Made by a program: the position numbers and the translations under genes. The notes under the pieces were generated by a model. It ran no database searches. It was not told where the DNA came from and worked only from the letters and a program-made list of their open reading frames with translations. A DNA stretch of 64,000 bases from assembly GCA_035353995.1 (NCBI GenBank), contig DAOQAL010000001.1, positions 70,867 to 134,866 of the forward strand, written 5' to 3'. Position 1 is the stretch's first letter; each line of letters begins with the position of its first letter. The DNA is from Minisyncoccota bacterium (GTDB lineage Bacteria > Patescibacteriota > Minisyncoccia > Phycocordibacterales > UBA9973). Below, piece by piece: positions 7,328-25,972 of the stretch.

Positions 7328-9796
7328 ATGAGAAAAACTTTTTCCAAAATAGTTTGCTCGATTGTAATGATAAGTATTATCATGATGTCTTTTGCGGGCA
7401 TTGAACCAAAAAAAGCTAAAGCTGAATCTATTGAAAATTATATTTCAAAATTATCTCCTATGATTGCTGAACTTCCAGGATGTTCGGATAAAATTTCTGG
7501 TTCTATATCTGGTCTTTTTTCAAAAGTAAAAGATATGGTAAATGGTAAAGAAAAAAACGATAAAACCGAACAAAGTGTTGAAGACCAAGTTAAATTTAAC
7601 GCAGGTGATTATGTTCCTGTTGTTGATGAAGAGAGTGTAGAAATGCTTAAAGACGTTAAAAAAACAACAGAAAGTACAGAAAAAAAGGTTTCTAGTTTGG
7701 AGACTAATAATACCTGTTTAAATGCAATAGGGAAAGCGGTAGCAAAAATTTTAGTTCAAGATATAACAGAAAGTGTTGTTAATTGGATCCAAACTGGAGA
7801 TTTTGGTGATCCATTGTTTATTCAAAATCCAAGTCAATATTTTGAAGATATAGCAAAAAATGAAATATTGGGTTTTGGTCAGGAGATAAGTGACCCAACA
7901 CTATATCCTTTTGGAAAAGCATTTATGCAAATTAAGGCAAATTCTTTTAAAAACAAATTCGCAAATAATGCAAAATATAGTTTAAATACATTAATGGAAG
8001 ATAGATATCCAGGGTTTACTTCAGAAAATTTTTATGCCGATTTTTCACAAGGAGGATGGGGAGCCTGGAATGCAATGGTTCAAAATCCTGCTAATAACCC
8101 ATTGGGTTTCGCTTTAATGGCTTCGGAAGAACTAGAAAAGAGAATTGAAGAAAAAACAAGTTTAGCAAAAGATTCTCTTCAGCAATCAGGTGGGTATTTA
8201 GGAGTTGAAAGATGCGCTAACCCAGAAGGAGTTTCAAAAGAAGAAGATGATAATTATAGAAATGGGGTAGAAGGAGCTCGTAAGTGTAAGAGCTGGGAGA
8301 CTGTTACACCAGGAAGATTAATTGGGGATGAATTAACAAATACATTCATGAAAAAAGATAATGCTTTAATGGATGTAGAAACGTTAAACGATGCTGTTGC
8401 TGCAATACTAGATGCAGTTTTGGATAAATTTGTAAGTTCTTTCCAAGAAGAAGGATTGGCAGATCTAAATATTGATAGTTATTACGAAACATATGACTTT
8501 GAAGGATTTGGCAGTTCTCAAAGTGACCAAGATTATACAGATGCACAAATAAATGCAAGCACATGGCTTAAACAACATCCAGATTTTGATATAAGAACAG
8601 ATTTAAACCAAGCTTTAATAGACGAGCAAAGAATATATTCTGATAAATTAGAAACTCAAAATAAAGAATTATATTCTACAGTAGAAAAATCTACTGAAAA
8701 TCCACTAGGAAATTATGGATTGGTTCCAACAATTTACCAATTAGACTATTGTATACCGGGCCCTCATACTGGCTGGAAGGAGGATACACAAGCAAGTCTT
8801 GAAACGATACAAGAAGAAATGGCAAATAAAAAATTTATAGATTACGAAGATGAATCATGGTTTGAAATTCTTAACTTAATTACACTTGGAGGTGCAAGTA
8901 TGGTAGCAGGGTATATTAATGATTATGCTTTTAAATGCGATGGCAGTACAGGCAGACAAGCAGCTCTTACATATATGAATCAATTTAATATTATGACTAC
9001 TGGTGGAGACAAATACTGGATTAAAAACAAGCAAAGTTCAAATCTTCCATTCTGTACTGTAAATGGTTTTATATCAGCAACTGACAAGGTTGAATCTGAT
9101 TATGAAAAATTAGTAGATACTTTTTATGCTACAAAATTTTTGCCTAGTGTAAGTAGTGAAGCTGAAACTTTATTTGAAAAAATTTCTGGTTATCATCAAA
9201 TAATGGAAGATAATAAATATACAATAGATACCTTAGCTGGGACGATAAGAAGATTAGAACAAATAAAAAAAGAAGTTGATGATATAAATAGCAAACTTGC
9301 TTCTGGAGAAATGGACCAAGACACATATAATGAAAATCTAAAAGTCTGGAAGGGCACTTTTGCAAGACTATCTTCTGGATTATATTCTGGGGACGATATA
9401 GCTAAAGCCGATAATGCAACAAAAGAAATAATAGATGAAAAAGATCATGTATATAACGACTTAATAAAGAGTGCAACTGGTTGCGAGCAAGAGGTAAAAC
9501 AAAATTTTCCTTCAGCTTATTCTTGGGAAATTTATTCTTCTTATAGACCAGATTATACAAAACCACACTTGTATGACTATCCAGACAGATTAGCCTCAGC
9601 TGGTGTTCCTATATCTAAAACAACAAAAGAAAAATCATTCGCACCGAATGTTGTAATTATGGATAGCGCAAGCACTACGTGCCCTACTAGCTATGCTATT
9701 GGCTGTATAGATATTACTGGTTTTGTGCAAACAAAAGATCCACATAAGGCTGAGAATGCAGGATATTATTGGGAACAAGCATTAGGAATATATTAA
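7328..9796 (+). CDS. Large secreted protein (822 aa), function unknown
   Basis: Cleavable-looking signal peptide (MRKTFSKIVCSIVMISIIMMSFAGIEPKKAKA). Long ORF, in-operon, with no recognisable catalytic motif. Confidence 0.65.
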   Translation: MRKTFSKIVCSIVMISIIMMSFAGIEPKKAKAESIENYISKLSPMIAELPGCSDKISGSISGLFSKVKDMVNGKEKNDKTEQSVEDQVKFNAGDYVPVVDEESVEMLKDVKKTTESTEKKVSSLETNNTCLNAIGKAVAKILVQDITESVVNWIQTGDFGDPLFIQNPSQYFEDIAKNEILGFGQEISDPTLYPFGKAFMQIKANSFKNKFANNAKYSLNTLMEDRYPGFTSENFYADFSQGGWGAWNAMVQNPANNPLGFALMASEELEKRIEEKTSLAKDSLQQSGGYLGVERCANPEGVSKEEDDNYRNGVEGARKCKSWETVTPGRLIGDELTNTFMKKDNALMDVETLNDAVAAILDAVLDKFVSSFQEEGLADLNIDSYYETYDFEGFGSSQSDQDYTDAQINASTWLKQHPDFDIRTDLNQALIDEQRIYSDKLETQNKELYSTVEKSTENPLGNYGLVPTIYQLDYCIPGPHTGWKEDTQASLETIQEEMANKKFIDYEDESWFEILNLITLGGASMVAGYINDYAFKCDGSTGRQAALTYMNQFNIMTTGGDKYWIKNKQSSNLPFCTVNGFISATDKVESDYEKLVDTFYATKFLPSVSSEAETLFEKISGYHQIMEDNKYTIDTLAGTIRRLEQIKKEVDDINSKLASGEMDQDTYNENLKVWKGTFARLSSGLYSGDDIAKADNATKEIIDEKDHVYNDLIKSATGCEQEVKQNFPSAYSWEIYSSYRPDYTKPHLYDYPDRLASAGVPISKTTKEKSFAPNVVIMDSASTTCPTSYAIGCIDITGFVQTKDPHKAENAGYYWEQALGIY

Positions 9797-9797
9797 A

Positions 9798-12200
9798 ATG
9801 AAAAAAACAAATCAAAAAATAAAAAAAATTATTTATAAATATTTAATCTTGTGTTTAGTTTTTGTTTTTGCTTTTTCTATTGCAGAAAACTCTTTTGCTT
9901 ATCCAACAGTTAATATAACTGCAAACCCTGATTCAGTTGTATATGAAGGAATATCAACTGTCACTTGGTCATCATCAGAAACTGATTATTGCATTTGGAG
10001 TGATGGCACAACAGCTAAAACTTCTGGTTCTTTTGTTACAGGTCCACTTAAATTTAATAATAATTATTATTCTCTTACATGTAAAAAAGGAAATTCATGT
10101 GTTGCATATTCTCCTGATAAAATTTTATATACATCTAAAAATGGCACAAGCTTGGGATTGGCAAAGAATTTTTGTTATTCAAAAACAACAGATGGAAAAG
10201 AAACATGCGAGTCAGCACAAGCAAGTTATGGATCGGATTTGGTAGAGAATGTTTGTTATTGGGGCAATACAGAAGCATCCAATTCAGTAATAATAACAAC
10301 AAGTCCAAAACAAACATCTGGTGGATCTATAACCAATACTTTAACAGGTGGTGCATCTGGTATAGAGGATACAAAAGCAACATTAAGTGGATCTTTAAAT
10401 CCTGGAGGTAATACATCTATCTCTGGGTATTTTAGATATTCTGCTGTAACACCACAAGACATAACACCTGTCTTTTGTAATGATATATACGGTTCAAATA
10501 TGAGATCAACAAAAGAAATAAATTTAAACGGAGCAGATAGTTCAACAACTTTTACAACCACTATTTCTGGTTTGGAAGAAAATACAACATACTACTACTG
10601 TGCTGTTGGTTCTGGCTATAATGAAATAACATATGGTGGAGTAAGATCATTCACAACAGGACTTTCTTCTTCATCATTCTCAGTAACAACAAATGATGCA
10701 CTAGTCGTAAATGATACATCTGCATATTTAAACGGATATTACAATACGGTTGTTTCTGCAAATACATATTTTGAGTACAGAAAAAAGTTTCAGGCAGTCC
10801 CTAATACATCAAATGCTTCTATTTCTAAAAACACTTCGTCAAGATTCTTAGGATATGTTAAAAATACTTTTAATAAATTATTACAAACAGATAAAGTGCT
10901 AGCTTCAACAAGTGACACTAAATTTTCGGACTGGATAAGAGTTGGAGACCAAAGTCACAACAGAAGCACTTATGGGAAAATGAGCACATTAGTAAGCGGA
11001 CTTTCTCCAAGCTCAACTTATCAATTTAGAGCTGTAATAGAAACAAGCAGTTCATCATCTACTTCCCAAATAAAATATGGAAATCTTTTATCTTTCACAA
11101 CAGCGAGCTCAGATACAACAACACCTGGCGATGTTCCTGGAGGAGAAGAATATAATGACCCATGTGCATCAATAGCAGACAGTGTTGATATAAATTGTAA
11201 TGGTACAGGAGGAGATGAAGAAAATGGGAAAATAACAGGATCTGGTATTGATCTTACTGTTGGTACAGTGACCCCAACAAATGTAACAAAAAATACATTA
11301 ACTCCATTTTATGCTTACGTAAAAAATCAAGGAGGGACATCAACTGGAAAAAATTTCTATGGTTTTTTCCAAATTTCAACTTACGATAGAACACCAGCTG
11401 ACACAGGAAGTAATAATAATATTAAAAATAAAAATCAAACAACACCAGCAAATTCTGCAGGAACACCAGTAAGTAAAATAGAAAAATTGTTAACAATAAA
11501 TAAAGCATTTGCCACATCAGGCAATTCCAATCCTGCAAATAATGCAACAGCAGTCAGCACGACTGTTACAGATGGTTCTCTAATAAATCTTCCAGCTGTT
11601 TCTATATCTACCTTGGGAGCAAAAAAATCAGTAAAAATATCAAGCTCATATGCTTTTGGTTCTTCTGGTACATATTATATGAGAGCTTGTGCTGATAAAA
11701 AAGACAATAAGGATATAGGATTGATAAAAGAATCGTATGAAAATAATAATTGTGGATCTTGGACAAAAATTATTGTTAAATCAGGTGGTGGAGGAAATAA
11801 TAATAGTAATGACGATACAGGCAGTCTTAGTCTTGGACAAATTGCTACACCTCCATCTGACGCAATCGTACGATACCATGAAGGAATTGAGCATGTATTT
11901 GCAAGACAAATAATTAATAATATAGAAATGGCAGAAGCTTATGGATATAAAGAAGGAGATAGTTTAGAAAAATTTGCCTGGAATTTTGCGGACTTACTTG
12001 CAAAAGATTTTGGTTATGTAGCACAAAATAGAAAAGAGATAAGGGTAAGTTTGCCAGATATTGCAGCATACCAGTTAAGAATGGAAGCAAGCGGACTAAC
12101 AGTATATGAATACTTTGATTCAAAAATTGTAAATATTCAAACGACAACAATGTCGTTGCGAGGTATTTATGATTATGAATATTATTTCAATAAAAGATAG
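9798..12200 (+). CDS. Large secreted Ser/Thr-rich protein (800 aa) with fibronectin-III-like modules
   Basis: Signal peptide (ILCLVFVFAFSIAENSFA). Repeated Fn3-like signatures (ISGLEENTTYYYCAV, VSGLSPSSTYQFRAV) and S/T/N-rich linkers. Confidence 0.65.
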   Translation: MKKTNQKIKKIIYKYLILCLVFVFAFSIAENSFAYPTVNITANPDSVVYEGISTVTWSSSETDYCIWSDGTTAKTSGSFVTGPLKFNNNYYSLTCKKGNSCVAYSPDKILYTSKNGTSLGLAKNFCYSKTTDGKETCESAQASYGSDLVENVCYWGNTEASNSVIITTSPKQTSGGSITNTLTGGASGIEDTKATLSGSLNPGGNTSISGYFRYSAVTPQDITPVFCNDIYGSNMRSTKEINLNGADSSTTFTTTISGLEENTTYYYCAVGSGYNEITYGGVRSFTTGLSSSSFSVTTNDALVVNDTSAYLNGYYNTVVSANTYFEYRKKFQAVPNTSNASISKNTSSRFLGYVKNTFNKLLQTDKVLASTSDTKFSDWIRVGDQSHNRSTYGKMSTLVSGLSPSSTYQFRAVIETSSSSSTSQIKYGNLLSFTTASSDTTTPGDVPGGEEYNDPCASIADSVDINCNGTGGDEENGKITGSGIDLTVGTVTPTNVTKNTLTPFYAYVKNQGGTSTGKNFYGFFQISTYDRTPADTGSNNNIKNKNQTTPANSAGTPVSKIEKLLTINKAFATSGNSNPANNATAVSTTVTDGSLINLPAVSISTLGAKKSVKISSSYAFGSSGTYYMRACADKKDNKDIGLIKESYENNNCGSWTKIIVKSGGGGNNNSNDDTGSLSLGQIATPPSDAIVRYHEGIEHVFARQIINNIEMAEAYGYKEGDSLEKFAWNFADLLAKDFGYVAQNRKEIRVSLPDIAAYQLRMEASGLTVYEYFDSKIVNIQTTTMSLRGIYDYEYYFNKR

Positions 12201-12227: not shown

Positions 12228-14618
12228 ATGGAAATAATTAGAAAAAATAATTTAATAAAGAAAATATTAATACCATTTATTGCTTTGGCTATTTTCTTGA
12301 TGCCTATTAGCCCAAGTTTGAAAATCAATAATGGACATCTGGCAACAAAAATTACTGTAAATAGAGCTTATGCTGAGAGTATAGAAACTGCCACAAAAGA
12401 AATAGGAGAGACGAGTGCAAGTTTTAAAATAATTCTTTTAAACACAATAAATTTATCGGTATATAATACCCCATATAATGTAATAATAACTCTTTATCAG
12501 GGGAAAAGTGACGGAACAACTGAAAAAAATTATATAGAGACACAAAATTTTCCTTTTGAAGTTAACACTGAAAGACAAGAATTTGACGCAGTGTTTAAAA
12601 AACTAAACCCTGGTACTAGTTACTATTTTACAGCTACAGTATATCATACTATATCGGGTGACTCATCAATAAAAATTAGAGATTTTGATACCACGGGGAA
12701 TGGAGGTAGTGGCTTAAGCACTCAAAAAGATGCCTCCGAACTTGTAAATATTGATAATCAAGAATTGAACTTGGAATGTACTATTTGGGATGGCTGGGAA
12801 GGCATAGGAGGTTGCATAGCTAATTTATTTTATATGGTTTGGCAAGTTTCTGAATGGATTGCTAATTTAGCAGGTGGTTTTCTTGATTTTTTTGTTTACT
12901 ATTCAACAAATAGCAGTTCTTACGTTAGTGGTTTTATAACAGAGGGCTGGGGAGCAATACGAGATATTGCTAATATTTTCTTTATTGTTGCTTTATTGTA
13001 TGTTGCTATAAAAACAATATTAAGTTTAGGGGGGCAAGACACAAAAAAATTGATTGGATATATCGTTATTATGGCATTACTTATTAATTTCAGTTTATTT
13101 TTCACACGAGTAATTGTTGATGGATCAAATATTCTGGCGAAGGTATTTTACAACAATATAACACCAAAGAATAAAGACGGAAAAGTAATAACAGGAGATG
13201 AAGGAGAAAAATCTATTACAGTTGGATTAGTTGATAAATTTAATCCAGCAAGTCTTGTAACAAATTCGGTTTATCAAAGTGAAGGTATGACTCTAGGAAA
13301 GTTTATTTTTATAGTTCTCTTACTTACAGCAATTACTCTTTCTATGGCATATATGTTCTTTACGGTTGCAATTGTTTTTGTAAGCAGAACTGTAATGCTG
13401 TGGATTTCTATGATTTTTTCTCCGATTGCTTTTGCATCATACACCTTGCCTTTTAACATACCCGGAATGGGTCATAAGGATTGGTGGGATCAACTATTAA
13501 AAAATGCATTCCTAGCTCCAATTTTTGTATTTTTCTTATATATAATAGTGATGTTTACCAATTTCTTAAAAGAAATTACTTATGATCCAACCAATGATTC
13601 TTTTTTGGGAAGTTTAATGCATATAGTAATTCCTTTTATAATTCTCTTTATGTTGCTGATGAAGGCCAAAGAGATGGCAGTAAAATTATCTGGAGAAATG
13701 GGTAAGGCAATTACAAAAGGAGCCACTATGTTAGGAGGTGTTGCATTAGGCGCAGCTGCTGGCAGTGCAGCTTTTGCAATGCGTGGCACTTTGGGAAGAG
13801 TCGGAAATGCTCTTGGTAATGCGGAGTGGACTAAAAAAACTGGCAAATTTGGAAGAGGTATGCAAAACATTGGACACTCATTAGGTAAAGGAAGTTTTGA
13901 TGTAAGAGGAATAAAGGTTGCTGGAAAGAGCTTGGCAAGCACTGGTATTCCAGTTGGAACAACAAGTGGGACTGGAGGGTATGAAAAGATACGTGCCGAC
14001 AAGATAGAAAAGAGACAAAAGAGAGCAAAAGAACTTGAGGTTGGAGAAAATAGCGGAATGAAACAAGAACTAAACAAAACCGAAGCAGACCTACAGGGTC
14101 TCTTGGTCACGAACGCAAAAGAAATCGAAGATATCGACAAATTAATTGACAAGAAGAAACAAGAAGCCGCTGATGCAGAGAGGAAAATGAAAGGTCTTCC
14201 ACCTGGACAGGAACACGAAGATGCTCAAGCAGCCTTAAGAGCAGCAAACGATGAGGTACAAAATGCTAAAGACAGAAAAAAGAACTTCCGAGAAGGAAGA
14301 GCTCATACGGATCTCGATGGCACAGTACATGACTACGAGACATCAGCAGTCTTAAAAGACAAGAATGGAAATACTATACATAAAAAAGACGCAAATGGGA
14401 ACATAGAGTTGGACGCAAACGGAAGACCAATAGCTATGGGTATTGATGTGCTGGAAAAGCAACAAAAGACACAAGCACAGGGCATCAAGACCGAAAACGT
14501 AATAAGGAGAACCAAATATGCTAAGGCTAAAGGACACTGGTATAATGGTAAAGGAAGTAGAGAAGCAGCTCATAAGATAATAATGGAGACAAAATTAGAT
14601 AGTGGTACTAAAACATAA
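12228..14618 (+). CDS. VirB6/TrbL/ConG-like polytopic membrane protein with N-terminal Fn3-like ectodomain and long charged/Gly-rich C-terminal tail
   Basis: Signal/TM at the N-terminus; Fn3-like NPGTSYYFTATVYH; at least 6 hydrophobic helices between residues about 180-520; Gly-rich then KE-rich coiled-coil-like tail. Confidence 0.6.
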   Translation: MEIIRKNNLIKKILIPFIALAIFLMPISPSLKINNGHLATKITVNRAYAESIETATKEIGETSASFKIILLNTINLSVYNTPYNVIITLYQGKSDGTTEKNYIETQNFPFEVNTERQEFDAVFKKLNPGTSYYFTATVYHTISGDSSIKIRDFDTTGNGGSGLSTQKDASELVNIDNQELNLECTIWDGWEGIGGCIANLFYMVWQVSEWIANLAGGFLDFFVYYSTNSSSYVSGFITEGWGAIRDIANIFFIVALLYVAIKTILSLGGQDTKKLIGYIVIMALLINFSLFFTRVIVDGSNILAKVFYNNITPKNKDGKVITGDEGEKSITVGLVDKFNPASLVTNSVYQSEGMTLGKFIFIVLLLTAITLSMAYMFFTVAIVFVSRTVMLWISMIFSPIAFASYTLPFNIPGMGHKDWWDQLLKNAFLAPIFVFFLYIIVMFTNFLKEITYDPTNDSFLGSLMHIVIPFIILFMLLMKAKEMAVKLSGEMGKAITKGATMLGGVALGAAAGSAAFAMRGTLGRVGNALGNAEWTKKTGKFGRGMQNIGHSLGKGSFDVRGIKVAGKSLASTGIPVGTTSGTGGYEKIRADKIEKRQKRAKELEVGENSGMKQELNKTEADLQGLLVTNAKEIEDIDKLIDKKKQEAADAERKMKGLPPGQEHEDAQAALRAANDEVQNAKDRKKNFREGRAHTDLDGTVHDYETSAVLKDKNGNTIHKKDANGNIELDANGRPIAMGIDVLEKQQKTQAQGIKTENVIRRTKYAKAKGHWYNGKGSREAAHKIIMETKLDSGTKT

Positions 14619-14620
14619 AT

Positions 14621-15118
14621 ATGACCGAGAAATTAAAACAGACAATTAAAGAACAAATGGTAATTATGCCTAAGGAATCACAAGAAGTGGTAAATAATTT
14701 TGATTGGGTAAAAATTTCCGAGGAAATTGGCAAAAAATATCTATTAAGTGAAGAAGAAATTAATATTTTACAAGCGGAGATAGCAACAGTACTGGTATGT
14801 GCCGAAGATCAAGATTATCTTACTCAAGATATAGAAAACGAGGTTGGTACAAGCAAGACTGAAGCAGAAAAAATAGCAAGTGAAGTTTTAGAAAAAATTT
14901 TTAAGCCACTAATTGAGAATTTATCTAAAAAAATAAAATTGGAATTAAAAGATCGTCCGATTAATTGGCAACAAAATTTAGATTTTATTCTTTCGGGGGG
15001 AGACTATACTGCTTTTATAAGAAAACCAATAAAAGAAGAAGACAATGTTGCTCCACAAGGAAATACTTTTTCAAACTATTCTGATTTAGATGATTTAAAA
15101 AGTAAATTTACAATATAG
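14621..15118 (+). CDS. Soluble hypothetical protein, paralogous to the next gene
   Basis: 165 aa with no TM. Shares a roughly 55-aa motif with 15135-15848 (FDW...KKY.LSEEEINILQAEIATVLVCA vs VDW...KKGYSFEQLEDLEIETELLLCG). Confidence 0.5.
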   Translation: MTEKLKQTIKEQMVIMPKESQEVVNNFDWVKISEEIGKKYLLSEEEINILQAEIATVLVCAEDQDYLTQDIENEVGTSKTEAEKIASEVLEKIFKPLIENLSKKIKLELKDRPINWQQNLDFILSGGDYTAFIRKPIKEEDNVAPQGNTFSNYSDLDDLKSKFTI

Positions 15119-15134
15119 TGTATAATAAAATTAT

Positions 15135-15848
15135 ATGGATAAACCGATAGATTTATTACAAATAAAAATAGAGAGAGCTAAAGAGTCTTTACCAAAAGAA
15201 ACATTAAAGGCTATTAATTCTGTCGACTGGAGGGCTTTCATTCTTGCCCTACGAGAAAAAAAGGGGTACAGCTTTGAACAATTAGAGGATTTAGAGATTG
15301 AAACAGAACTTTTACTTTGTGGTCTTTTATCAATTGAAAATTATCCAAAAGAAATAGAGGAAAGATTAAAAATTCCAAAACCACAAGTTGATTTATTAAT
15401 TAATGAAATGAATGAATCAGTATTTAAAAAAATTAGAGAAGAATTAATAAAAAATACAGAAAAAGAAGAATTGTTTGTTAGAAAAGAAGAAAAAATAGAA
15501 CAAAAACAAGTAATACAAACAGGAATAGATCCAACAATAAATAAAAGCGAGTCGAATATACTAAATAAAGCGGGAATAAGTATAATTGAAAGAGCAGAAG
15601 AGATTGCCCCACCTTCTAATACAGAAGTAAAAAAGGAAAACCCAATCGAAAAGCCAGTAGAAAAGCCAGTGGAATCAATTCCGTCTCAAAAATTGGCTGG
15701 TTCATTTCAAATTCCAATGACAAAAACTGAATATTCATTAAACAATAAACAGAATGTACAAAAAAATTTAACAGCAGAAAAAGAACAAACAGAAAAAATA
15801 AAACTTTCTAAAATAGATCCATACAGATTAGACCCAAATGCTGAATAA
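15135..15848 (+). CDS. Soluble hypothetical protein, paralogous to the previous gene
   Basis: 237 aa. N-terminal domain related to 14621-15118; C-terminal low-complexity K/E/P-rich region (PIEKPVEKPVESIP). Confidence 0.5.
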   Translation: MDKPIDLLQIKIERAKESLPKETLKAINSVDWRAFILALREKKGYSFEQLEDLEIETELLLCGLLSIENYPKEIEERLKIPKPQVDLLINEMNESVFKKIREELIKNTEKEELFVRKEEKIEQKQVIQTGIDPTINKSESNILNKAGISIIERAEEIAPPSNTEVKKENPIEKPVEKPVESIPSQKLAGSFQIPMTKTEYSLNNKQNVQKNLTAEKEQTEKIKLSKIDPYRLDPNAE

Positions 15849-15878
15849 AAAAGGAAAGATAAAATAAAAATCAAAAAA

Positions 15879-16301
15879 ATGCAATTTAAGGTACCACAAT
15901 TTTTAGATATAGAAGATAAAATTTTTGGACCATTTACTTTCAGCCAATTTGTATATTTGGCTGGTGGAGCAGGGTTATGTTTTGTGCTATATAAATTATT
16001 AGGTTTTTTACTTGGTTTTATTCCAATACTAGCAGTTGCAGCATTTGCAGTAGCATTAACTTTTTACAAACCAAATGGCAAACCTTTCATAAATACAATA
16101 GAAGCTGGACTAAAATACATGACACAAAATAAATTATATATATGGAAAAGAAGAAAACAAAAAATCACTACAACAAATACAACAGAAACACAAAAGAAAG
16201 ATGATATCATAAACAATAGAAATACAAGATTAACAAATAGTAAGTTACAAGATTTAGCATGGAGTCTCGATGTATTAGATTCCAAAAAAGAAGATAAATA
16301 A
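15879..16301 (+). CDS. VirB3/ConD-like small two-TM protein
   Basis: 140 aa with two adjacent hydrophobic helices (FVYLAGGAGLCFVLYKLLGFLLGFIPILAVAAFAVALTFY). Sits immediately upstream of the VirB4-like ATPase, as in Gram-positive T4SS. Confidence 0.5.
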   Translation: MQFKVPQFLDIEDKIFGPFTFSQFVYLAGGAGLCFVLYKLLGFLLGFIPILAVAAFAVALTFYKPNGKPFINTIEAGLKYMTQNKLYIWKRRKQKITTTNTTETQKKDDIINNRNTRLTNSKLQDLAWSLDVLDSKKEDK

Positions 16302-16302
16302 A

Positions 16303-16938
16303 ATGGCATTAAAAGCAAAAGCAACTCAAGACTTTGTTCCGATAAAAGAGGTTCGAGATGGAATCATCATTTTAAAAGATGGTGGGTTGAGAGCTATCAT
16401 ATTAGCGAACTCTGTAAACCTTTCACTAAAATCAGCAGAAGAACAAAGAGCAACAATTATGCAATTTCAAAATTTTTTAAATACACTCGATTTTCCAATA
16501 CAAATTTCTGTTCAATCAAGAAGACTTGATATAAGACCTTATCTTTTATTGTTGGAAAATAGAATAAAAGTCCAAAATGAACCATTGTTAAAATTACAAA
16601 CAAAAGAATATATGGGGTTTATAAAAGATTTTACCGATTCTGTAAATATTATGACAAAAACATTTTTTATAGTAGTACCATATACACAAACTACAATAAG
16701 GGCTGATTCTGGTATATTTAAAGGATTATTCCAAACAAAAAATAAAGAAATGATAAAAAAAGAAGCCGAAATTGATTTCGAAGAAAAAAGATCACAATTG
16801 GAACAAAGAGTCAGTGTTATAGAGCAAGGTCTTTCACGTTGTGGCGTTAAGGCAGTACAATTAGAAACAGATCAAGTTGTAGAAGCATTTTATAAAGTAT
16901 TTAATCCAGGAGAACTTGAGGGAAAAATAGAAATTTAG
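16303..16938 (+). CDS. N-terminal segment of a split VirB4/ConE-like protein
   Basis: 211 aa with no TM. Same reading frame as the following ATPase ORF, separated only by TAG-AAG-ATT-ATG. Combined length of 826 aa matches full-length ConE/VirB4. Confidence 0.55.
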   Translation: MALKAKATQDFVPIKEVRDGIIILKDGGLRAIILANSVNLSLKSAEEQRATIMQFQNFLNTLDFPIQISVQSRRLDIRPYLLLLENRIKVQNEPLLKLQTKEYMGFIKDFTDSVNIMTKTFFIVVPYTQTTIRADSGIFKGLFQTKNKEMIKKEAEIDFEEKRSQLEQRVSVIEQGLSRCGVKAVQLETDQVVEAFYKVFNPGELEGKIEI

Positions 16939-16944
16939 AAGATT

Positions 16945-18792
16945 ATGTCAATATTTGATTCATTTTTTAATACAAAAAAGAAAAGCAATGAAAACCAAAC
17001 ACAAGTTGGAGCAAATCCTTCTGTTTTGGCAGTACTGCCAGAAGAAATATATGAGTCTGCAAAACTTGAATTGCAAGATGTCATTGCGCCTTCAGCATTA
17101 AGGATTGAGCCAAAATCAATTAACTTAGGAGATAAAATAGCAAGAACATTTTTCATAATTTCTTTTCCAAGATTTTTATCTGATAACTGGTTTTCACCAA
17201 TAATAAACCTAGATAAGGTTTTTGATGTTTCTATTTTTGTTCACCCAATAGATACATCTTTAGCATTAAGACAATTTCAGAAAAAAGTAGCTGAAGTACA
17301 AAGTCAAATAAGTGTCAGAGAAGCAAAAGGGATGGTTAGAGATCCAATGTTAGACACAGCACATGAAGACTTAGAAAGTCTAAGAAATAATTTGATACAA
17401 GCACAAGAAAAAATGTTTGATGTTGGTATATATATAACAATATATGCAGATAATGAACTAGAACTTTTTAAAATAGAAAATGAAATAAAATCTATACTTG
17501 AATCAAAATTAATTTATATAAAACCAGCTCTTTTCCAACAAAATGAAGGATTTAAGAGCGTTATACCAACAGGAACTGATCTTTTAGGCATACATCAAAA
17601 ACTAAATTCTGAGCCTCTTTCTAGTATTTTTCCTTTCATATCTTTCGACCTTACTTCCACTAAAGGAATTTTATATGGTGTTAACAGACACAATTCAAGT
17701 TTAGTAATATTTGATAGATTTTCATTGGAAAATTACAACTCTGTAACTTTTGCAAAATCTGGTTCTGGAAAATCTTATGCAACAAAATTAGAAATATTAA
17801 GATCATTGATGTTTGATGTAGATGTAATAGTTATAGACCCTGAAAGGGAATATGAATACTTAACTGAAGTAGTAGGTGGAAGATATTTTAATATTTCTCT
17901 TTCATCTGATCACCACATAAACCCTTTTGATCTTCCAATACCAAGAGAAGATGAGACAGCAGAGGACGTTCTACGTTCAAATATAATAAACTTAGTTGGA
18001 TTATTCAGACTAATGCTTGGAGGATTAACACCAGAAGAAGATTCTCTTGTTGATAGAGCAATTTCAGAAACATATGCAATGAAAGATATAACCCCAGATT
18101 CTGATTTTTCTAATATTGAACCACCTCTTCTTTCAGATTTTGAAATGATTCTTGCTGGTATGGATGGAAGTGAGTCTGTAATGCAAAGATTGGTAAAATA
18201 TACAAAAGGATCTTGGTCCACATTCTTAAATAAACCATCAAATGTTGATATTAATAAAAAATTCGTAGTATTTTCTGTCCGTGATATGGAAGATGAATTA
18301 AAACCAGTAGCTATGTATATAGTAATGCACTATATTTGGACAGCAGTAAGAAAAAATTTGAAGAAACGATTACTTGTAGTTGATGAGGCTTGGTGGATGA
18401 TGAAATCTGAAGATACTGCTTCTTTCTTGTATTCTATGGCAAAAAGAGGAAGAAAATACTATCTTGGACTTTCAACTATAACACAAGATGCTGCCGACTT
18501 TATGAAGTCTACTTATGGTGTACCAATAATAACTAACTCCTCAATACAAATACTTTTAAAACAGTCACCAACAACCATAGATGTGTTGCAAAAAACATTT
18601 AACCTTACAGATGAAGAAAAATACTTACTTTTGGAATCAGGAGTAGGGGAAGGTATATTCTTTGCGGGAATGAAACACGTTGCAATAAAAATAATAGCTT
18701 CTTACACAGAAGATCAGATTATAACATCAGACCCGTCACAAATATTGTCGATTAAAAAAGAAAAGGAAGAAATTGAGAAAACAAATGAATAG
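16945..18792 (+). CDS. virB4: VirB4/TrbE/ConE-family type IV secretion ATPase
   Basis: Walker A FAKSGSGKSYATK, Walker B LLVVDEAWWMM, and a conserved pre-Walker region (ARTFFIISFPRFLSDNWF...VSIFVHPID). Confidence 0.85.
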   Translation: MSIFDSFFNTKKKSNENQTQVGANPSVLAVLPEEIYESAKLELQDVIAPSALRIEPKSINLGDKIARTFFIISFPRFLSDNWFSPIINLDKVFDVSIFVHPIDTSLALRQFQKKVAEVQSQISVREAKGMVRDPMLDTAHEDLESLRNNLIQAQEKMFDVGIYITIYADNELELFKIENEIKSILESKLIYIKPALFQQNEGFKSVIPTGTDLLGIHQKLNSEPLSSIFPFISFDLTSTKGILYGVNRHNSSLVIFDRFSLENYNSVTFAKSGSGKSYATKLEILRSLMFDVDVIVIDPEREYEYLTEVVGGRYFNISLSSDHHINPFDLPIPREDETAEDVLRSNIINLVGLFRLMLGGLTPEEDSLVDRAISETYAMKDITPDSDFSNIEPPLLSDFEMILAGMDGSESVMQRLVKYTKGSWSTFLNKPSNVDINKKFVVFSVRDMEDELKPVAMYIVMHYIWTAVRKNLKKRLLVVDEAWWMMKSEDTASFLYSMAKRGRKYYLGLSTITQDAADFMKSTYGVPIITNSSIQILLKQSPTTIDVLQKTFNLTDEEKYLLLESGVGEGIFFAGMKHVAIKIIASYTEDQIITSDPSQILSIKKEKEEIEKTNE

Positions 18793-18837
18793 TTTTCAAC
18801 CTGGCATCTATTACAAAATAAATGATATAATAAAAGT

Positions 18838-19803
18838 ATGTTTAAAAAGGGTTTAATTATATTTTTTACGTTAATTTGTTTATTTTTTGGATCACAAGTT
18901 AATGCACAAGTAAAAAGTGGTAATATCGTACTTAGTATAAGTCCCCAATACCCTAAAGCTGGAGAAGAAGTTCAAGCTTCTGTTTCAACATATTCGACAG
19001 ATTTAAATAATTCTAGAATTTCTTGGATAGTTAATGGAACAACAAAACTTGAAGGAGTTGGTAAAAAAACTTTTTCTTTTAGAATGGAAAATTCTGATTT
19101 TCAAACAGTTCTTGAAGTAAAAATTGAAACGCTTGATGGTTCTACAATAAATAAACAAATTACGATATCATCAACTAATGTTGATATGCTTTGGGAAGCG
19201 TATAACACATATACTCCTCCGTTTTATAAGGGAAAAACGTTGGCCACAACAGAAGGAATGATAAAAGTTGTGGCTTTTCCTAATACAACTAATTTAATTG
19301 GTTTTAATTATAAATGGGAAATGGATAATAAAAGCAAACAAGATTCTTCTGGATATGGAAGAAATTATTTTATATATAAAAATAGTTTTTTAGAAGATAG
19401 TAATACTATAGGAGTAAATGTTTCAGATATTTTTGGAAATAGTATAGGAGAAGGCACAACTACAATAAAACCAGGCAGTCCTATAATAAATTTTTATAGG
19501 AAAGACAGGAATCTTGGAATTAAATGGGAAAATATTTTAGAAAATGGATTTTCAATTAATAGAGAAGACGGTGACACAATTATAGTTGAACCATATTTTC
19601 TTTACCCGAAAGATTTTAATTCTGCAGATATATCTTGGGATTGGTTGATTAATGGAGAAAAAGTTCAAAACCAGAATCCTAAAAATTCTCTTTCAGTAAA
19701 ATTAGCAAACGAGGAATCAGGAAATGCAATAATAAAAGTTATGATTAGTAATACTAAAACACTTTTTGAAAGTGTTGAAAAACAATTAAATGTCAATTTC
19801 TAA
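18838..19803 (+). CDS. Secreted protein (321 aa), probable beta-sandwich repeats
   Basis: Signal peptide (LIIFFTLICLFFGSQVNA). No catalytic motifs. Lies in-operon between the VirB4-like gene and the hydrolase. Confidence 0.55.
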   Translation: MFKKGLIIFFTLICLFFGSQVNAQVKSGNIVLSISPQYPKAGEEVQASVSTYSTDLNNSRISWIVNGTTKLEGVGKKTFSFRMENSDFQTVLEVKIETLDGSTINKQITISSTNVDMLWEAYNTYTPPFYKGKTLATTEGMIKVVAFPNTTNLIGFNYKWEMDNKSKQDSSGYGRNYFIYKNSFLEDSNTIGVNVSDIFGNSIGEGTTTIKPGSPIINFYRKDRNLGIKWENILENGFSINREDGDTIIVEPYFLYPKDFNSADISWDWLINGEKVQNQNPKNSLSVKLANEESGNAIIKVMISNTKTLFESVEKQLNVNF

Positions 19804-21070
19804 ATCAAAAAAAATAATTATTTTTTTTCTGCTTATAATATTTTGTGGCAGTATTATTTTACCAGCTAGTGTTCTTGCAGTAGATCAAACAATATCAATT
19901 CAATGTTATTCAATAAACCAAAATGGGACTACGAAAAAATGGTCTCTTGGTTTTAAAATAAGTACTACAAATGTTGCAAATGGAACGAAAATTTATGATT
20001 ATTTATATGAAGATGGTATCAACTTAACAGAAGGAAACAAAATTTCTACTATCAAAGATGATTACGCAGAGTATCTTACTGGACAAATACTAGACTCAGA
20101 AACAAAATACACAGTAACAGCGACAGTAGTAGGCACGCCAAAGCTAACTACTTCTGTAAGCATTACAACACCTAAAGATGGAGAACAAGCAACTTCTTGT
20201 ACACCTTCAAACCCAGAAACTTCCCAAACAATCAAAAATACCATAAACACAGACAAAGAAACAAACAAAGAAACAGAAACAACATATACACTTCTTGCGC
20301 CATTGCCTGGATTAGAGGGTACAATTGATACAAAAATAAGTGCTGAAAATCCTTGCCCATTTGGAAACTACTTAAATATTATTATAAAACTATTTTTGGG
20401 AGTCTGTGCTGTCCTGGCTGTAGTCATGATTGTGATTGGTGGTATAGAATACATGACTAGTGATTTAGTTTCATCCAAAGAGTCTGGTAAAAAAATGATA
20501 ACTAATGCCATATTGGGTCTTCTACTCGGGCTCGGGGCATACGTTATATTGTCTGAACTAAACCCAGACTTGCTCAAAGTGTGCTTAAATAGTTTACCAG
20601 AAGTATCAATGGTTGCAGATGACAATGTTCCACAATCTCCAATTAATGGTAAATACTGCACTAATACATATGGAACAAATGGCGGATATACTGCAGGAGC
20701 AGATTGGTCTGCTATTGCTGGGAAAGCATCCACTTTACCAAGTGGAGTAAAAACTAATAACCCAGAGTGTACAAAAGTTGGAGAAAAAAATTGCACAAGT
20801 TTGCGTGGATTAAATCTCAGTACAATAAAAACTATTCAGTCAAAATGCACTTCTTGCGGAACAATAACAATAACTGGTGGAACTGAATGTTGGTTACATG
20901 GTGGATCAAAACAGAAAACAACACACCACATAAAAAGTCCAACCATAGACTTACGTCTCGAAACAAAATTGGATTCTTATATAAAATCAGGAACAAAAAA
21001 TGGATCCTGGTATAAAAAGGATGGAATTTTGTATTTATTAGAATCAAAACATTGGCACGTAGGAAATTAA
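19790..21070 (+). CDS. Secreted/membrane protein combining a VirB2/TrbC-like two-helix hairpin with a C-terminal peptidase-M15-like (VanY/L,D-peptidase) cell-wall hydrolase domain
   Basis: Signal peptide. Mid-protein TM1 (LFLGVCAVLAVVMIVIGGIEYM), short charged loop, then TM2 (ILGLLLGLGAYVILS). C-terminus has THHIKSPTIDL (matching the SxHxxGxAxD pattern) and ESKHWHV (matching ExWH), as in M15 peptidases. 8 Cys in the C-terminal domain. Confidence 0.6.
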   Translation: MSISKSKKIIIFFLLIIFCGSIILPASVLAVDQTISIQCYSINQNGTTKKWSLGFKISTTNVANGTKIYDYLYEDGINLTEGNKISTIKDDYAEYLTGQILDSETKYTVTATVVGTPKLTTSVSITTPKDGEQATSCTPSNPETSQTIKNTINTDKETNKETETTYTLLAPLPGLEGTIDTKISAENPCPFGNYLNIIIKLFLGVCAVLAVVMIVIGGIEYMTSDLVSSKESGKKMITNAILGLLLGLGAYVILSELNPDLLKVCLNSLPEVSMVADDNVPQSPINGKYCTNTYGTNGGYTAGADWSAIAGKASTLPSGVKTNNPECTKVGEKNCTSLRGLNLSTIKTIQSKCTSCGTITITGGTECWLHGGSKQKTTHHIKSPTIDLRLETKLDSYIKSGTKNGSWYKKDGILYLLESKHWHVGN

Positions 21071-24628: not shown

Positions 24629-25972
24629 ATGGACACAAAACAACTTTGGAAAAATTGCTTGGCTGAAATAGAGGGGAGTGTTTCGAAAGCAAACTTTAGT
24701 ACTTGGTTTAAAAACACTTCTATATTAAAAGAAGACGCGGGTATTATTTATGTAGCAGTTCCTAACGAATTTGTAAGAGATTGGTTAAAAAATAAATATC
24801 ATAAATTAATAACTAAAACAATAGCAGACACTTATGAAAGTATGCGTGCTGTTGAATACGTTATTACAAGGACAGATGCTATAAAACAAGAATTACCAAG
24901 GACAAATGACTCTTTTATAAAGCAAGAATTACCACTAAAAGATCTTTATATTAACCCTGAAGATAATTTAAACCCAAGATATCAATTTAATTCTTTTATC
25001 GTTGGTTCATTCAACGAACTTGCTTATGCTGCCTCACAAGCGATTATTGAAAGTCCTGGAACGAAATATAATCCATTCTTTGTTTATGGAGCTACAGGGC
25101 TTGGAAAAACACACTTAATACAAGCTGTTGGAAATTCAATAAAAGAAAAATATCAGAATAAAAAAGTACATTACTTAACTTTAGAAAAGTTTGCTACAGA
25201 TTTTATTAATTCATTACAAAACAATAAAGCAAATTCTTTTAAGGAAAAATATCGTAAATATGATCTTTTAATCATAGACGATATACAATTCATAGGAAAG
25301 ATGGAAAAAATACAAGAAGAATTATTCCATACATTCAATACTTTCTATGAAAACAACAAACAAATAATATTTTCCTCAGATAAACACCCAAATTATATTC
25401 CAGAGCTAGCTGACAGATTAAAGTCTCGTTTTGCAGCTGGAATGATTGTAGATGTTACAGAACCAGAATATGAATCACGATTAGCTATATTAAAGGTAAA
25501 ATTACGTGAACAAAATATAGAACTTGGCCAAGAAATCATTGAATATGTTGCATCAAACATAAGAGGTAACATTCGTGAGCTTGAGGGTAGCTTAAATACG
25601 ATTATATGCCAATATCGCTTGAAAAATAGCACTCTTTCAATTTCTGAGGTCAAAACATTATTAAAAAATAATATGAAGCCTAAGAAAAATGTTTCAGTAA
25701 AGGATGTAGCAAAAATAGTAGGGGATTATTATAACTTAGAAGAAACTTCAATTTATGAAAAAACAAGAAGAAAAGAGATAGTGAAAGCAAGACAAATAGT
25801 AATGTTTTTATTAAGAGAAGACTTCAATGTTTCATATCCTTTAATTGGGCAAAAACTTGGCGGGAAAGATCACACTACGGTAATACATTCTTATTTGAAA
25901 ATTAAAAATGATTTAAAAAACGATCCACAGCTTTTACAAGAAATAGAACAAATAAGAATCATGTTTAAATAG
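24629..25972 (+). CDS. dnaA: Chromosomal replication initiator DnaA
   Basis: Walker A GATGLGKTHL, sensor motifs, and C-terminal DNA-binding domain (KDHTTVIHS). Confidence 0.95.
   Translation: MDTKQLWKNCLAEIEGSVSKANFSTWFKNTSILKEDAGIIYVAVPNEFVRDWLKNKYHKLITKTIADTYESMRAVEYVITRTDAIKQELPRTNDSFIKQELPLKDLYINPEDNLNPRYQFNSFIVGSFNELAYAASQAIIESPGTKYNPFFVYGATGLGKTHLIQAVGNSIKEKYQNKKVHYLTLEKFATDFINSLQNNKANSFKEKYRKYDLLIIDDIQFIGKMEKIQEELFHTFNTFYENNKQIIFSSDKHPNYIPELADRLKSRFAAGMIVDVTEPEYESRLAILKVKLREQNIELGQEIIEYVASNIRGNIRELEGSLNTIICQYRLKNSTLSISEVKTLLKNNMKPKKNVSVKDVAKIVGDYYNLEETSIYEKTRRKEIVKARQIVMFLLREDFNVSYPLIGQKLGGKDHTTVIHSYLKIKNDLKNDPQLLQEIEQIRIMFK

Follow-up and report, generated by a model that had tools for sequence, protein, structure and literature searches.

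Homologues of TrsD are the most abundant component of the type IV secretion systems (T4SSs) of Patescibacteria, and 1,664 of them adjoin virB4 (Quinonero-Coronel et al. 2025, Microb Genom, PMC12102498). According to the same paper, TrsD is remotely homologous to the N-terminus of VirB4, the virB4 genes of Patescibacteria are accompanied by genes for PrgI/VirB3, VirB6, and VirB2-like pilins, and the cluster of Paceibacteria lies near dnaA, dnaN, rnpA, and rpmH. Citing Wang et al. 2023, the paper reports that the Patescibacteria T4SS is essential for epibiotic growth in the one species tested, and it gives the TrsD homologue of Ca. Southlakia epibionticum ML1 as essential (PMC12102498). The Staphylococcus aureus plasmid pSK41 has the gene order trsC (VirB3-like, 135 amino acids, or aa), trsD (227 aa), and trsE (672 aa). 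We analyzed a pair of genes of this type in a 64,000-nucleotide stretch (contig DAOQAL010000001.1; here called the window, G+C content ~30%) of the chromosome of a Minisyncoccota bacterium. The two open reading frames (ORFs) share one reading frame and are separated by a TAG codon and 6 nt, and a sequence-only reading had taken them for one VirB4 gene interrupted by that TAG. We conclude, with a high degree of confidence, that they are two genuine genes, translated separately, in a chromosomal T4SS cluster of Gram-positive type (MPF-FATA-like) of a Paceibacteria-class Patescibacterium, and that the upstream, 211-aa product is equivalent to the VirB4 N-terminal subdomain. The features of the junction are as follows.

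15879 to 16301, plus strand: PrgI/VirB3-like small membrane protein, 140 aa (Pfam PF12666)
16303 to 16938, plus strand: TrsD-like or "TraC-like" (PF26593) stand-alone protein, 211 aa, predicted counterpart of the N-terminal ~180 to 230 residues of full-length VirB4
16936 to 16938, plus strand: TAG stop, read as the genuine terminus of the TrsD-like gene; relatives stop at the same place
16939 to 16944, plus strand: intergenic spacer AAGATT, 6 nt (1 to 130 nt in relatives)
16945 to 18792, plus strand: short-form, TrsE-like VirB4 ATPase, 615 aa, ATG start

The coordinates of both ORFs, their common frame (both starts are at 3n+1), the letters of the junction (GAA ATT TAG AAG ATT ATG), and the summed length of 826 aa, all given by the sequence-only reading, were confirmed in the sequence. 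The TAA stop of the PrgI gene is followed after 1 nt by the ATG of the TrsD-like gene.

The window holds the set of genes that marks T4SSs of the Patescibacteria clade: virB4 with a TrsD homologue, PrgI, a pilin, a weak VirB6-type match, and a DnaA-like ORF (the last assigned from its translation). As in the published systems (PMC12102498), the stand-alone TrsD-like gene lies directly upstream of virB4, with PrgI/VirB3-like, VirB6-like, and VirB2-like pilin genes nearby; the cluster is chromosomal, near dnaA, rnpA, and yidC, and the organism belongs to the class Paceibacteria/Nomurabacteria. Nothing of substance sets the locus apart from these systems, its only local peculiarity being the common frame with the 6-nt gap. 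No relaxase was noticed in the cluster, and no search aimed at relaxases was made. The arrangement has already been published as the TrsD and VirB4 pair of Patescibacteria (PMC12102498); that paper does not appear to describe the pair as a split gene or to compare its breakpoint with that of pSK41. For the remote homology, the 2025 paper points to Guglielmini et al. 2014 (PMC4027160), whose main text does not name TrsD, so that the statement is not verifiable there, and a 2025 FEMS review (PMC12857230) mentions neither TrsD nor a split VirB4.

The downstream, 615-aa protein passes the NCBIfam CD1110 VirB4 family (NF045971; curated cutoff, 325 bits) with 365.9 bits and an E value of 4.2e-109, and it covers positions 182 to 733 of 752. 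It has a Walker A motif (AKSGSGKS) at residue 270 and a Walker B motif (LLVVDE) at residue 476, contains the Pfam P-loop_TraG domain (E value, 2.3e-24), and matches the VirB4 C-terminal domain in the Protein Data Bank (PDB 4ag5; E value, 4.6e-39). Judged by these matches, the 615-aa protein is the remainder of VirB4, consisting of leftover residues of the N-terminal domain and the Walker A/B ATPase domain.

The upstream protein covers what the downstream protein lacks. NCBIfam sets the 211-aa protein on the N-terminal part of four VirB4 models. It maps to positions 2 to 120 of the CD1110 profile, to positions 101 to 234 of VirB4_plasma (E value, 8.8e-11), where the 615-aa protein occupies positions 292 to 893, and to positions 3 to 185 of TIGR00929, where the 615-aa protein occupies positions 287 to 725. 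On all three of these full-length VirB4 profiles, the two pieces are complementary, collinear, and nonoverlapping. When the two proteins were fused in silico, the VirB4_plasma score rose from 261.8 to 300.0 bits, with residues 160 to 804 aligned to profile positions 235 to 893 straight through the junction, and the CD1110 score rose from 365.9 to 379.1 bits. Precomputed annotation gives PF26593 (TraC-like) to the exact 211-aa protein and to all of its best 120 homologues. An AlphaFold2 model of the 211-aa protein, compared with the PDB by Foldseek, had TrwK/VirB4 chains as all of its top 14 matches (probability, 0.85 to 1.0), and the next match was noise (E value, 0.37). Based on profile positions and predicted fold, the 211-aa protein corresponds to the N-terminal region of VirB4. 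The sequence-only reading had proposed the same on the look of the protein, and this part of it was borne out by the VirB4 profile positions, the fold matches, and the fusion scores.

Of the conjugative plasmids pSK41 and pGO1, only pSK41 was examined. It belongs to the pGO1 subclass of MPF-FATA and shares with the window the order of a VirB3-like gene, a TrsD gene (227 vs 211 aa), and a short VirB4 gene (672 vs 615 aa). As with TrsD, a protein of ~200 to 230 aa with full-length homology lies in the window between the VirB3-like gene and the gene for a short VirB4. When 68 diverse homologues of the 211-aa protein were aligned to pSK41 TrsD with hhalign, columns 9 to 205 matched residues 33 to 217 over 174 columns with an E value of 3.8e-5; with a shallow alignment the match was weak (E value, 0.022 over 44 columns), so that this comparison is usable only with the diverse alignment. 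The 211-aa protein is also detected by the TrsD/TraD profile (NCBIfam NF041427), with residues 6 to 133 on positions 13 to 147 of 201 (E value, 8.5e-6). By BLASTP, residues 45 to 583 of the 615-aa protein align with residues 36 to 617 of pSK41 TrsE (E value, 4e-33). On the CD1110 profile, the match of TrsE starts at position 183 and that of the window VirB4 at position 182, which is the same breakpoint. The similarity is very remote, with ~17% identity for TrsD and 24% for TrsE. In addition, the trs genes belong to a conjugative plasmid that has a relaxase and a coupling protein; the cluster in the window is chromosomal.

Single-chain VirB4 proteins differ from this arrangement. The 615-aa protein aligns with PrgJ of pCF10 (796 aa; E value, 8e-42), which has ~180 extra N-terminal residues. 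The VirB4 of the window scores above the CD1110 cutoff, and the 211-aa protein has its place on the same profile; in contrast, PrgJ and CD1110 proteins are single polypeptides of ~750 to 800 aa with an N-terminal and an ATPase domain, in which the N-terminal ~180 to 230 residues belong to the same chain, whereas in the window profile positions 2 to 120 are found on a separate protein. When the diverse homologue alignment was compared by hhalign with full-length PrgJ as a single sequence, the result was not significant (E value, 0.58), and the residues of PrgJ that aligned were 47 to 95, in its N-terminal region. TrwK/VirB4 of R388 (PDB 7o41, 7o43, 8rtb, and 8rtd) has a homologous ATPase domain (residues 265 to 569 vs 446 to 741; E value, 3e-8), and TrwK chains are the sole meaningful fold matches of the 211-aa model. 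TrwK differs in being a single 823-aa chain of a Gram-negative system. A profile search detects no similarity between TrwK and the 211-aa protein; the search of this protein against PDB sequences returned only chance matches to SiaP (E value, ~0.5).

Several observations weigh against the assignment of the 211-aa protein or against separate translation of the downstream gene. The hhalign probability against the single TrsD sequence is only 71%. On NF041427, the 211-aa protein scores 25.7 bits against a curated cutoff of 200 bits, while pSK41 TrsD itself, used as a control, scores 227.6 bits; by the NCBIfam criterion, the predicted protein is a remote TrsD homologue and not a member of the family. 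An hmmscan of the 211-aa protein against a local copy of Pfam-A found no family at an E value of ≤0.01, and this copy may lack the PF26593 model. The structure prediction reached moderate quality (mean pLDDT, 62), and the Foldseek E values are modest (4e-3 to 6e-2), with high root mean square deviations and an unreported TrwK residue range. Finally, the ATG at 16945 has no Shine-Dalgarno motif. The sequence-only reading had named ribosome-binding potential and ATG usage at this site as a check; the ORF does start with ATG, and no ribosome-binding motif precedes it. We give this little weight, because a Shine-Dalgarno-like motif is present at only ~7 of the 61 window ORFs of at least 100 aa, and its absence is therefore normal for this genome.

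We collected 80 loci from the genomes of different GTDB species (named Nomurabacteria, Paceibacterota, or Minisyncoccia) and analyzed their junctions by script; counts out of 81 include the window. In each of the 80 relatives, the TrsD-like piece is an ORF of its own and the VirB4 gene comes after it; immediately ahead of the TrsD-like gene, 81/81 loci have a PrgI homologue. The TrsD-like gene ends in TAA in 64 loci, in TAG in 14 (window included), and in TGA in 3. The distance from this stop to the first ATG ranges from 1 to 130 nt (≤7 nt in 35 loci and >40 nt in 27). The two ORFs are in a common frame in 22/81 loci (27%), a proportion no different from the one-third expected (binomial P = 0.29), and the shared frame is thus a matter of chance. 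The VirB4 gene encodes 612 to 636 aa in the 76 relatives in which it is complete. The 211-aa protein is 72 to 81% identical in the relatives, with >100 invariant columns, and the best alignment segment of the VirB4 piece has a median identity of 87%.

Searches of protein collections gave the same picture. In a search of 5.8 billion proteins, the best 120 homologues of the 211-aa protein, from many independent assemblies, are 74 to 100% identical to it, and all are 211 to 219 aa long. When the representatives of 50%-identity clusters were searched exhaustively, 2,298 clusters matched at an E value of ≤0.001, and the best 150 of these representatives are 33 to 84% identical and 114 to 443 aa long. 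No fused homologue of ~800 aa, and none longer than 443 aa, is among the best 120 and best 150 listed. Some of the TrsD-like homologues are 300 to 443 aa long (P0143, P0152, P0212, P0227, P0228, P0231, and others), with the homology in the N-terminal part and C-terminal extensions of 100 to 230 aa; these extensions are not the ATPase, which would add ~600 aa.

Because no relative has a fused gene, there is no support for a VirB4 gene interrupted by an in-frame TAG, and nothing has been interrupted. The comparison of fused with split orthologs, which the sequence-only reading had named as a way of deciding the matter, went against an interrupted gene, since the two parts are always separate genes in the relatives (80/80). 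Of the three options that it had offered, a functional split gene was essentially right, whereas a recent nonsense mutation and a base-call error were excluded by the relatives and the independent assembly described below. It is extremely improbable that a recent nonsense mutation split an intact gene for ~826 aa and left the secretion apparatus inactive or decaying. Apart from the common frame and the 6-nt gap, such a mutation has in its favor a summed length typical of full-length VirB4, such as the 796 aa of PrgJ; yet neither the 80 species-level genomes nor the 270 listed homologues include a fused orthologue, all relatives stop at the homologous position while using different codons and frames, and both proteins are strongly conserved. 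A false TAG at 16936 to 16938, made by sequencing or assembly error, is an a priori possibility in any metagenome-assembled genome and nothing more speaks for it. We regard it as virtually inconceivable here, since the window agrees letter for letter over 2,936 nt, TAG included, with NCBI assembly GCA_964524305.1 and with an independent Logan assembly of SRR5007244, 12 contigs have the exact 211-aa protein among their gene calls, and every relative stops at the same place.

Programmed recoding of the TAG (by readthrough, a suppressor tRNA, or pyrrolysine), which would yield a fused VirB4 of 826 aa in addition to the two chains or in their place, has in its favor, in this one genome, the in-frame ORFs with only two sense codons between the stop and the ATG; from the sequence, low-level readthrough is conceivable. 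It is nonetheless extremely doubtful, because neither the frame (22/81) nor the codon (TAA in 64/81) is conserved and because the spacers of relatives, up to 130 nt long, hold further stops and hairpins. Moreover, the 61 window ORFs end in TAA (43), TAG (13), or TGA (5); all three stop codons close long ORFs, and the code is therefore the standard bacterial one, as the sequence-only reading had argued in judging stop-codon reassignment unlikely. Given the stop in 80/80 relatives, the independent assembly, and the unconserved frame and codon, we rejected a nonsense mutation, an assembly error, and conserved recoding of the TAG, each of which is excluded or very unlikely. A different objection is that the 211-aa protein could be an accessory paralogue distantly like the VirB4 N-terminus, with a role of its own, and not the missing piece of VirB4. 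The TrsD homologues of Gracilibacteria, most of which are not beside virB4 (PMC12102498), and the homologues with C-terminal extensions would fit an accessory factor. This is quite unlikely, since the VirB4 piece lacks exactly those profile positions that the 211-aa protein covers, the pieces are collinear and nonoverlapping on three profiles with one alignment crossing the artificial junction, and adjacency and order are invariant in 81/81 loci.

On the comparative evidence, the split is ancient and fixed across the lineage, with the same breakpoint as trsD/trsE of pSK41, and the TAG is the stop of the TrsD-like gene, whose in-frame relation to the VirB4 gene is coincidental. As to whether the apparatus is active, a question raised by the sequence-only reading, the stop codon does not point to decay: in its architecture the cluster is a normal, conserved Patescibacteria T4SS, and the secretion apparatus looks intact. 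The genes for the PrgI/VirB3-like, TrsD-like, and VirB4 proteins would be co-transcribed, and their translational coupling is probable, as suggested by the gaps of 1 and 6 nt. A promoter and terminator scan found no terminator-like site in positions 14500 to 19200, and promoter-like sites there were fewer than in shuffles; the scan is compatible with co-transcription and otherwise uninformative. The 211-aa chain would then join the 615-aa chain noncovalently to give a complete VirB4 protomer, and the rebuilt protomer would dock on the VirB3-like membrane protein and power the machine for secretion or pilus formation. Annotators should neither merge these two ORFs nor flag them as a pseudogene. 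The coincidence with the trsD/trsE breakpoint of pSK41 supports naming TrsD a detached VirB4 N-terminal subdomain; beyond these two points, the locus adds little.

Because both systems break at the same CD1110 point (182 vs 183), we tentatively propose that the two-chain forms of VirB4 in Patescibacteria and in pSK41 (pGO1 subclass) go back to one ancestral fission. We hold this as a possibility only; the coincidence of breakpoints suggests a fission common to Patescibacteria and the pGO1 subclass but is no proof of it. If there was a single fission, the Patescibacteria secretion system, which is essential, would have its origin in a Gram-positive conjugation system of the pGO1 type, and the free TrsD subdomain would be a separately dosed subunit controlling docking of the ATPase on VirB3 or its oligomerization. 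Occasional readthrough of the in-frame TAG, giving some fused VirB4, is much less likely than a single shared fission.

The PrgI gene is assigned by its Pfam match (PF12666; E value, 8.1e-9; 36.3 bits vs a cutoff of 27). The other assigned features of the cluster are the following.

12228 to 14618, plus strand: polytopic membrane protein, candidate VirB6-like channel component (weak NCBIfam match; hydrophobic stretches)
19790 to 21070, plus strand: T4SS pilin (VirB2-like) domain protein with a long C-terminal extension (Pfam PF18895)
24629 to 25972, plus strand: DnaA-like gene, assigned from translation alone

The product of 12228 to 14618 weakly matches the MMCAP2_0566 conjugal transfer family (E value, 9.9e-4; 18.5 bits, below the cutoff of 90), and several hydrophobic stretches are visible in its translation. 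The 426-aa product of 19790 to 21070 matches PF18895 (T4SS_pilin) at residues 195 to 254 (E value, 4.2e-6; 27.2 bits vs a cutoff of 26.6). Its Cys-rich C-terminal region (~170 aa) has an H-x6-D motif (HHIKSPTID) and an HWH motif, which we take to resemble those of LAS/M15-type zinc peptidoglycan peptidases; a Pfam scan of the C-terminal 186 aa gave no match. This protein may thus join a pilin to a cell wall hydrolase. The translation of 24629 to 25972 carries an AAA+ Walker A motif (GATGLGKTHL), and its C-terminal region was recognized by reading as presumably DnaA-like. Given the DnaA-like gene, as assigned from its translation, the cluster is located close to the replication origin.

The cluster opens, at positions 7328 to 12200 (plus strand), with genes for two large proteins (822 and 800 aa) that are predicted to be secreted and have signal-like segments at their N-termini; the second has weak CARDB and fibronectin-like repeats. 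They may serve the secretion system as surface or adhesin components, or they may be its substrates. Between the VirB6-like and PrgI genes, positions 14621 to 15848 (plus strand) encode two acidic Glu/Lys-rich proteins (165 and 237 aa), for which a Pfam scan found no family. The N-terminal ~60 residues of both look alike (...KE...V.N..DW......I.....), and the two may be paralogous cluster-specific components. A TATAAT-like box lies ~5 to 12 nt before the ATG of many window ORFs (e.g., 7328, 15135, 18838, 30110, 36231, 38648, 40467, and 52771). Such ATG-proximal boxes, together with the rarity of Shine-Dalgarno motifs, suggest that leaderless or very short-leader mRNAs are widespread in this genome.

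The longer spacers between the TrsD-like and virB4 genes of relatives hold at least four unrelated kinds of palindromic inserts, and because such inserts occur there, we regard the site as ordinary intergenic DNA. A palindrome search of the window found no long palindromes of the kind seen in these spacers. The first kind, present in several species, is a hairpin of ~70 to 80 nt made of periodic TAGGC.../...GCCTA units (ΔG, -24 to -32 kcal/mol). Its 14-mers recur elsewhere in some loci, e.g., just upstream of the TrsD-like gene, and it looks like a small dispersed palindromic repeat. Examples, numbered within each relative's locus, are as follows.

L010, 1722 to 1792: TAGGC.../...GCCTA hairpin
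L022, 4640 to 4717: TAGGC.../...GCCTA hairpin
L029, 4640 to 4720: TAGGC.../...GCCTA hairpin
L060, 1864 to 1937: TAGGC.../...GCCTA hairpin

The second kind resembles miniature inverted-repeat transposable elements: inserts of 116 to 130 nt with terminal inverted repeats of ~25 to 30 nt (CCCGTTAGAAGC.GCGGTCGC ... GCGACCTGCTTCTAACGGG) and fold energies of -25 to -39 kcal/mol, all at the same intergenic site.

L007, 4640 to 4755: insert of this kind
L045, 4670 to 4799: insert of this kind
L048, 4640 to 4760: insert of this kind

The other two kinds are a near-perfect hairpin of 16 to 20 bp, CTAGGCAAGACCTAAC...GTTAGGTCTTGCCTAG, without a T tract, and an AT-rich imperfect palindrome built on AAAGTTATAAAGT / ACTTTATAACTTT. 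The loci with these two classes are the following.

L036, L039, L043, L053, and L068: spacers of 45 to 55 nt
L025, L051, L055, L059, L064, and L077: spacers of 47 to 123 nt

The occurrence of four unrelated palindromes at one site suggests either that the site is a hot spot of insertion or that a hairpin between the genes has a regulatory role.

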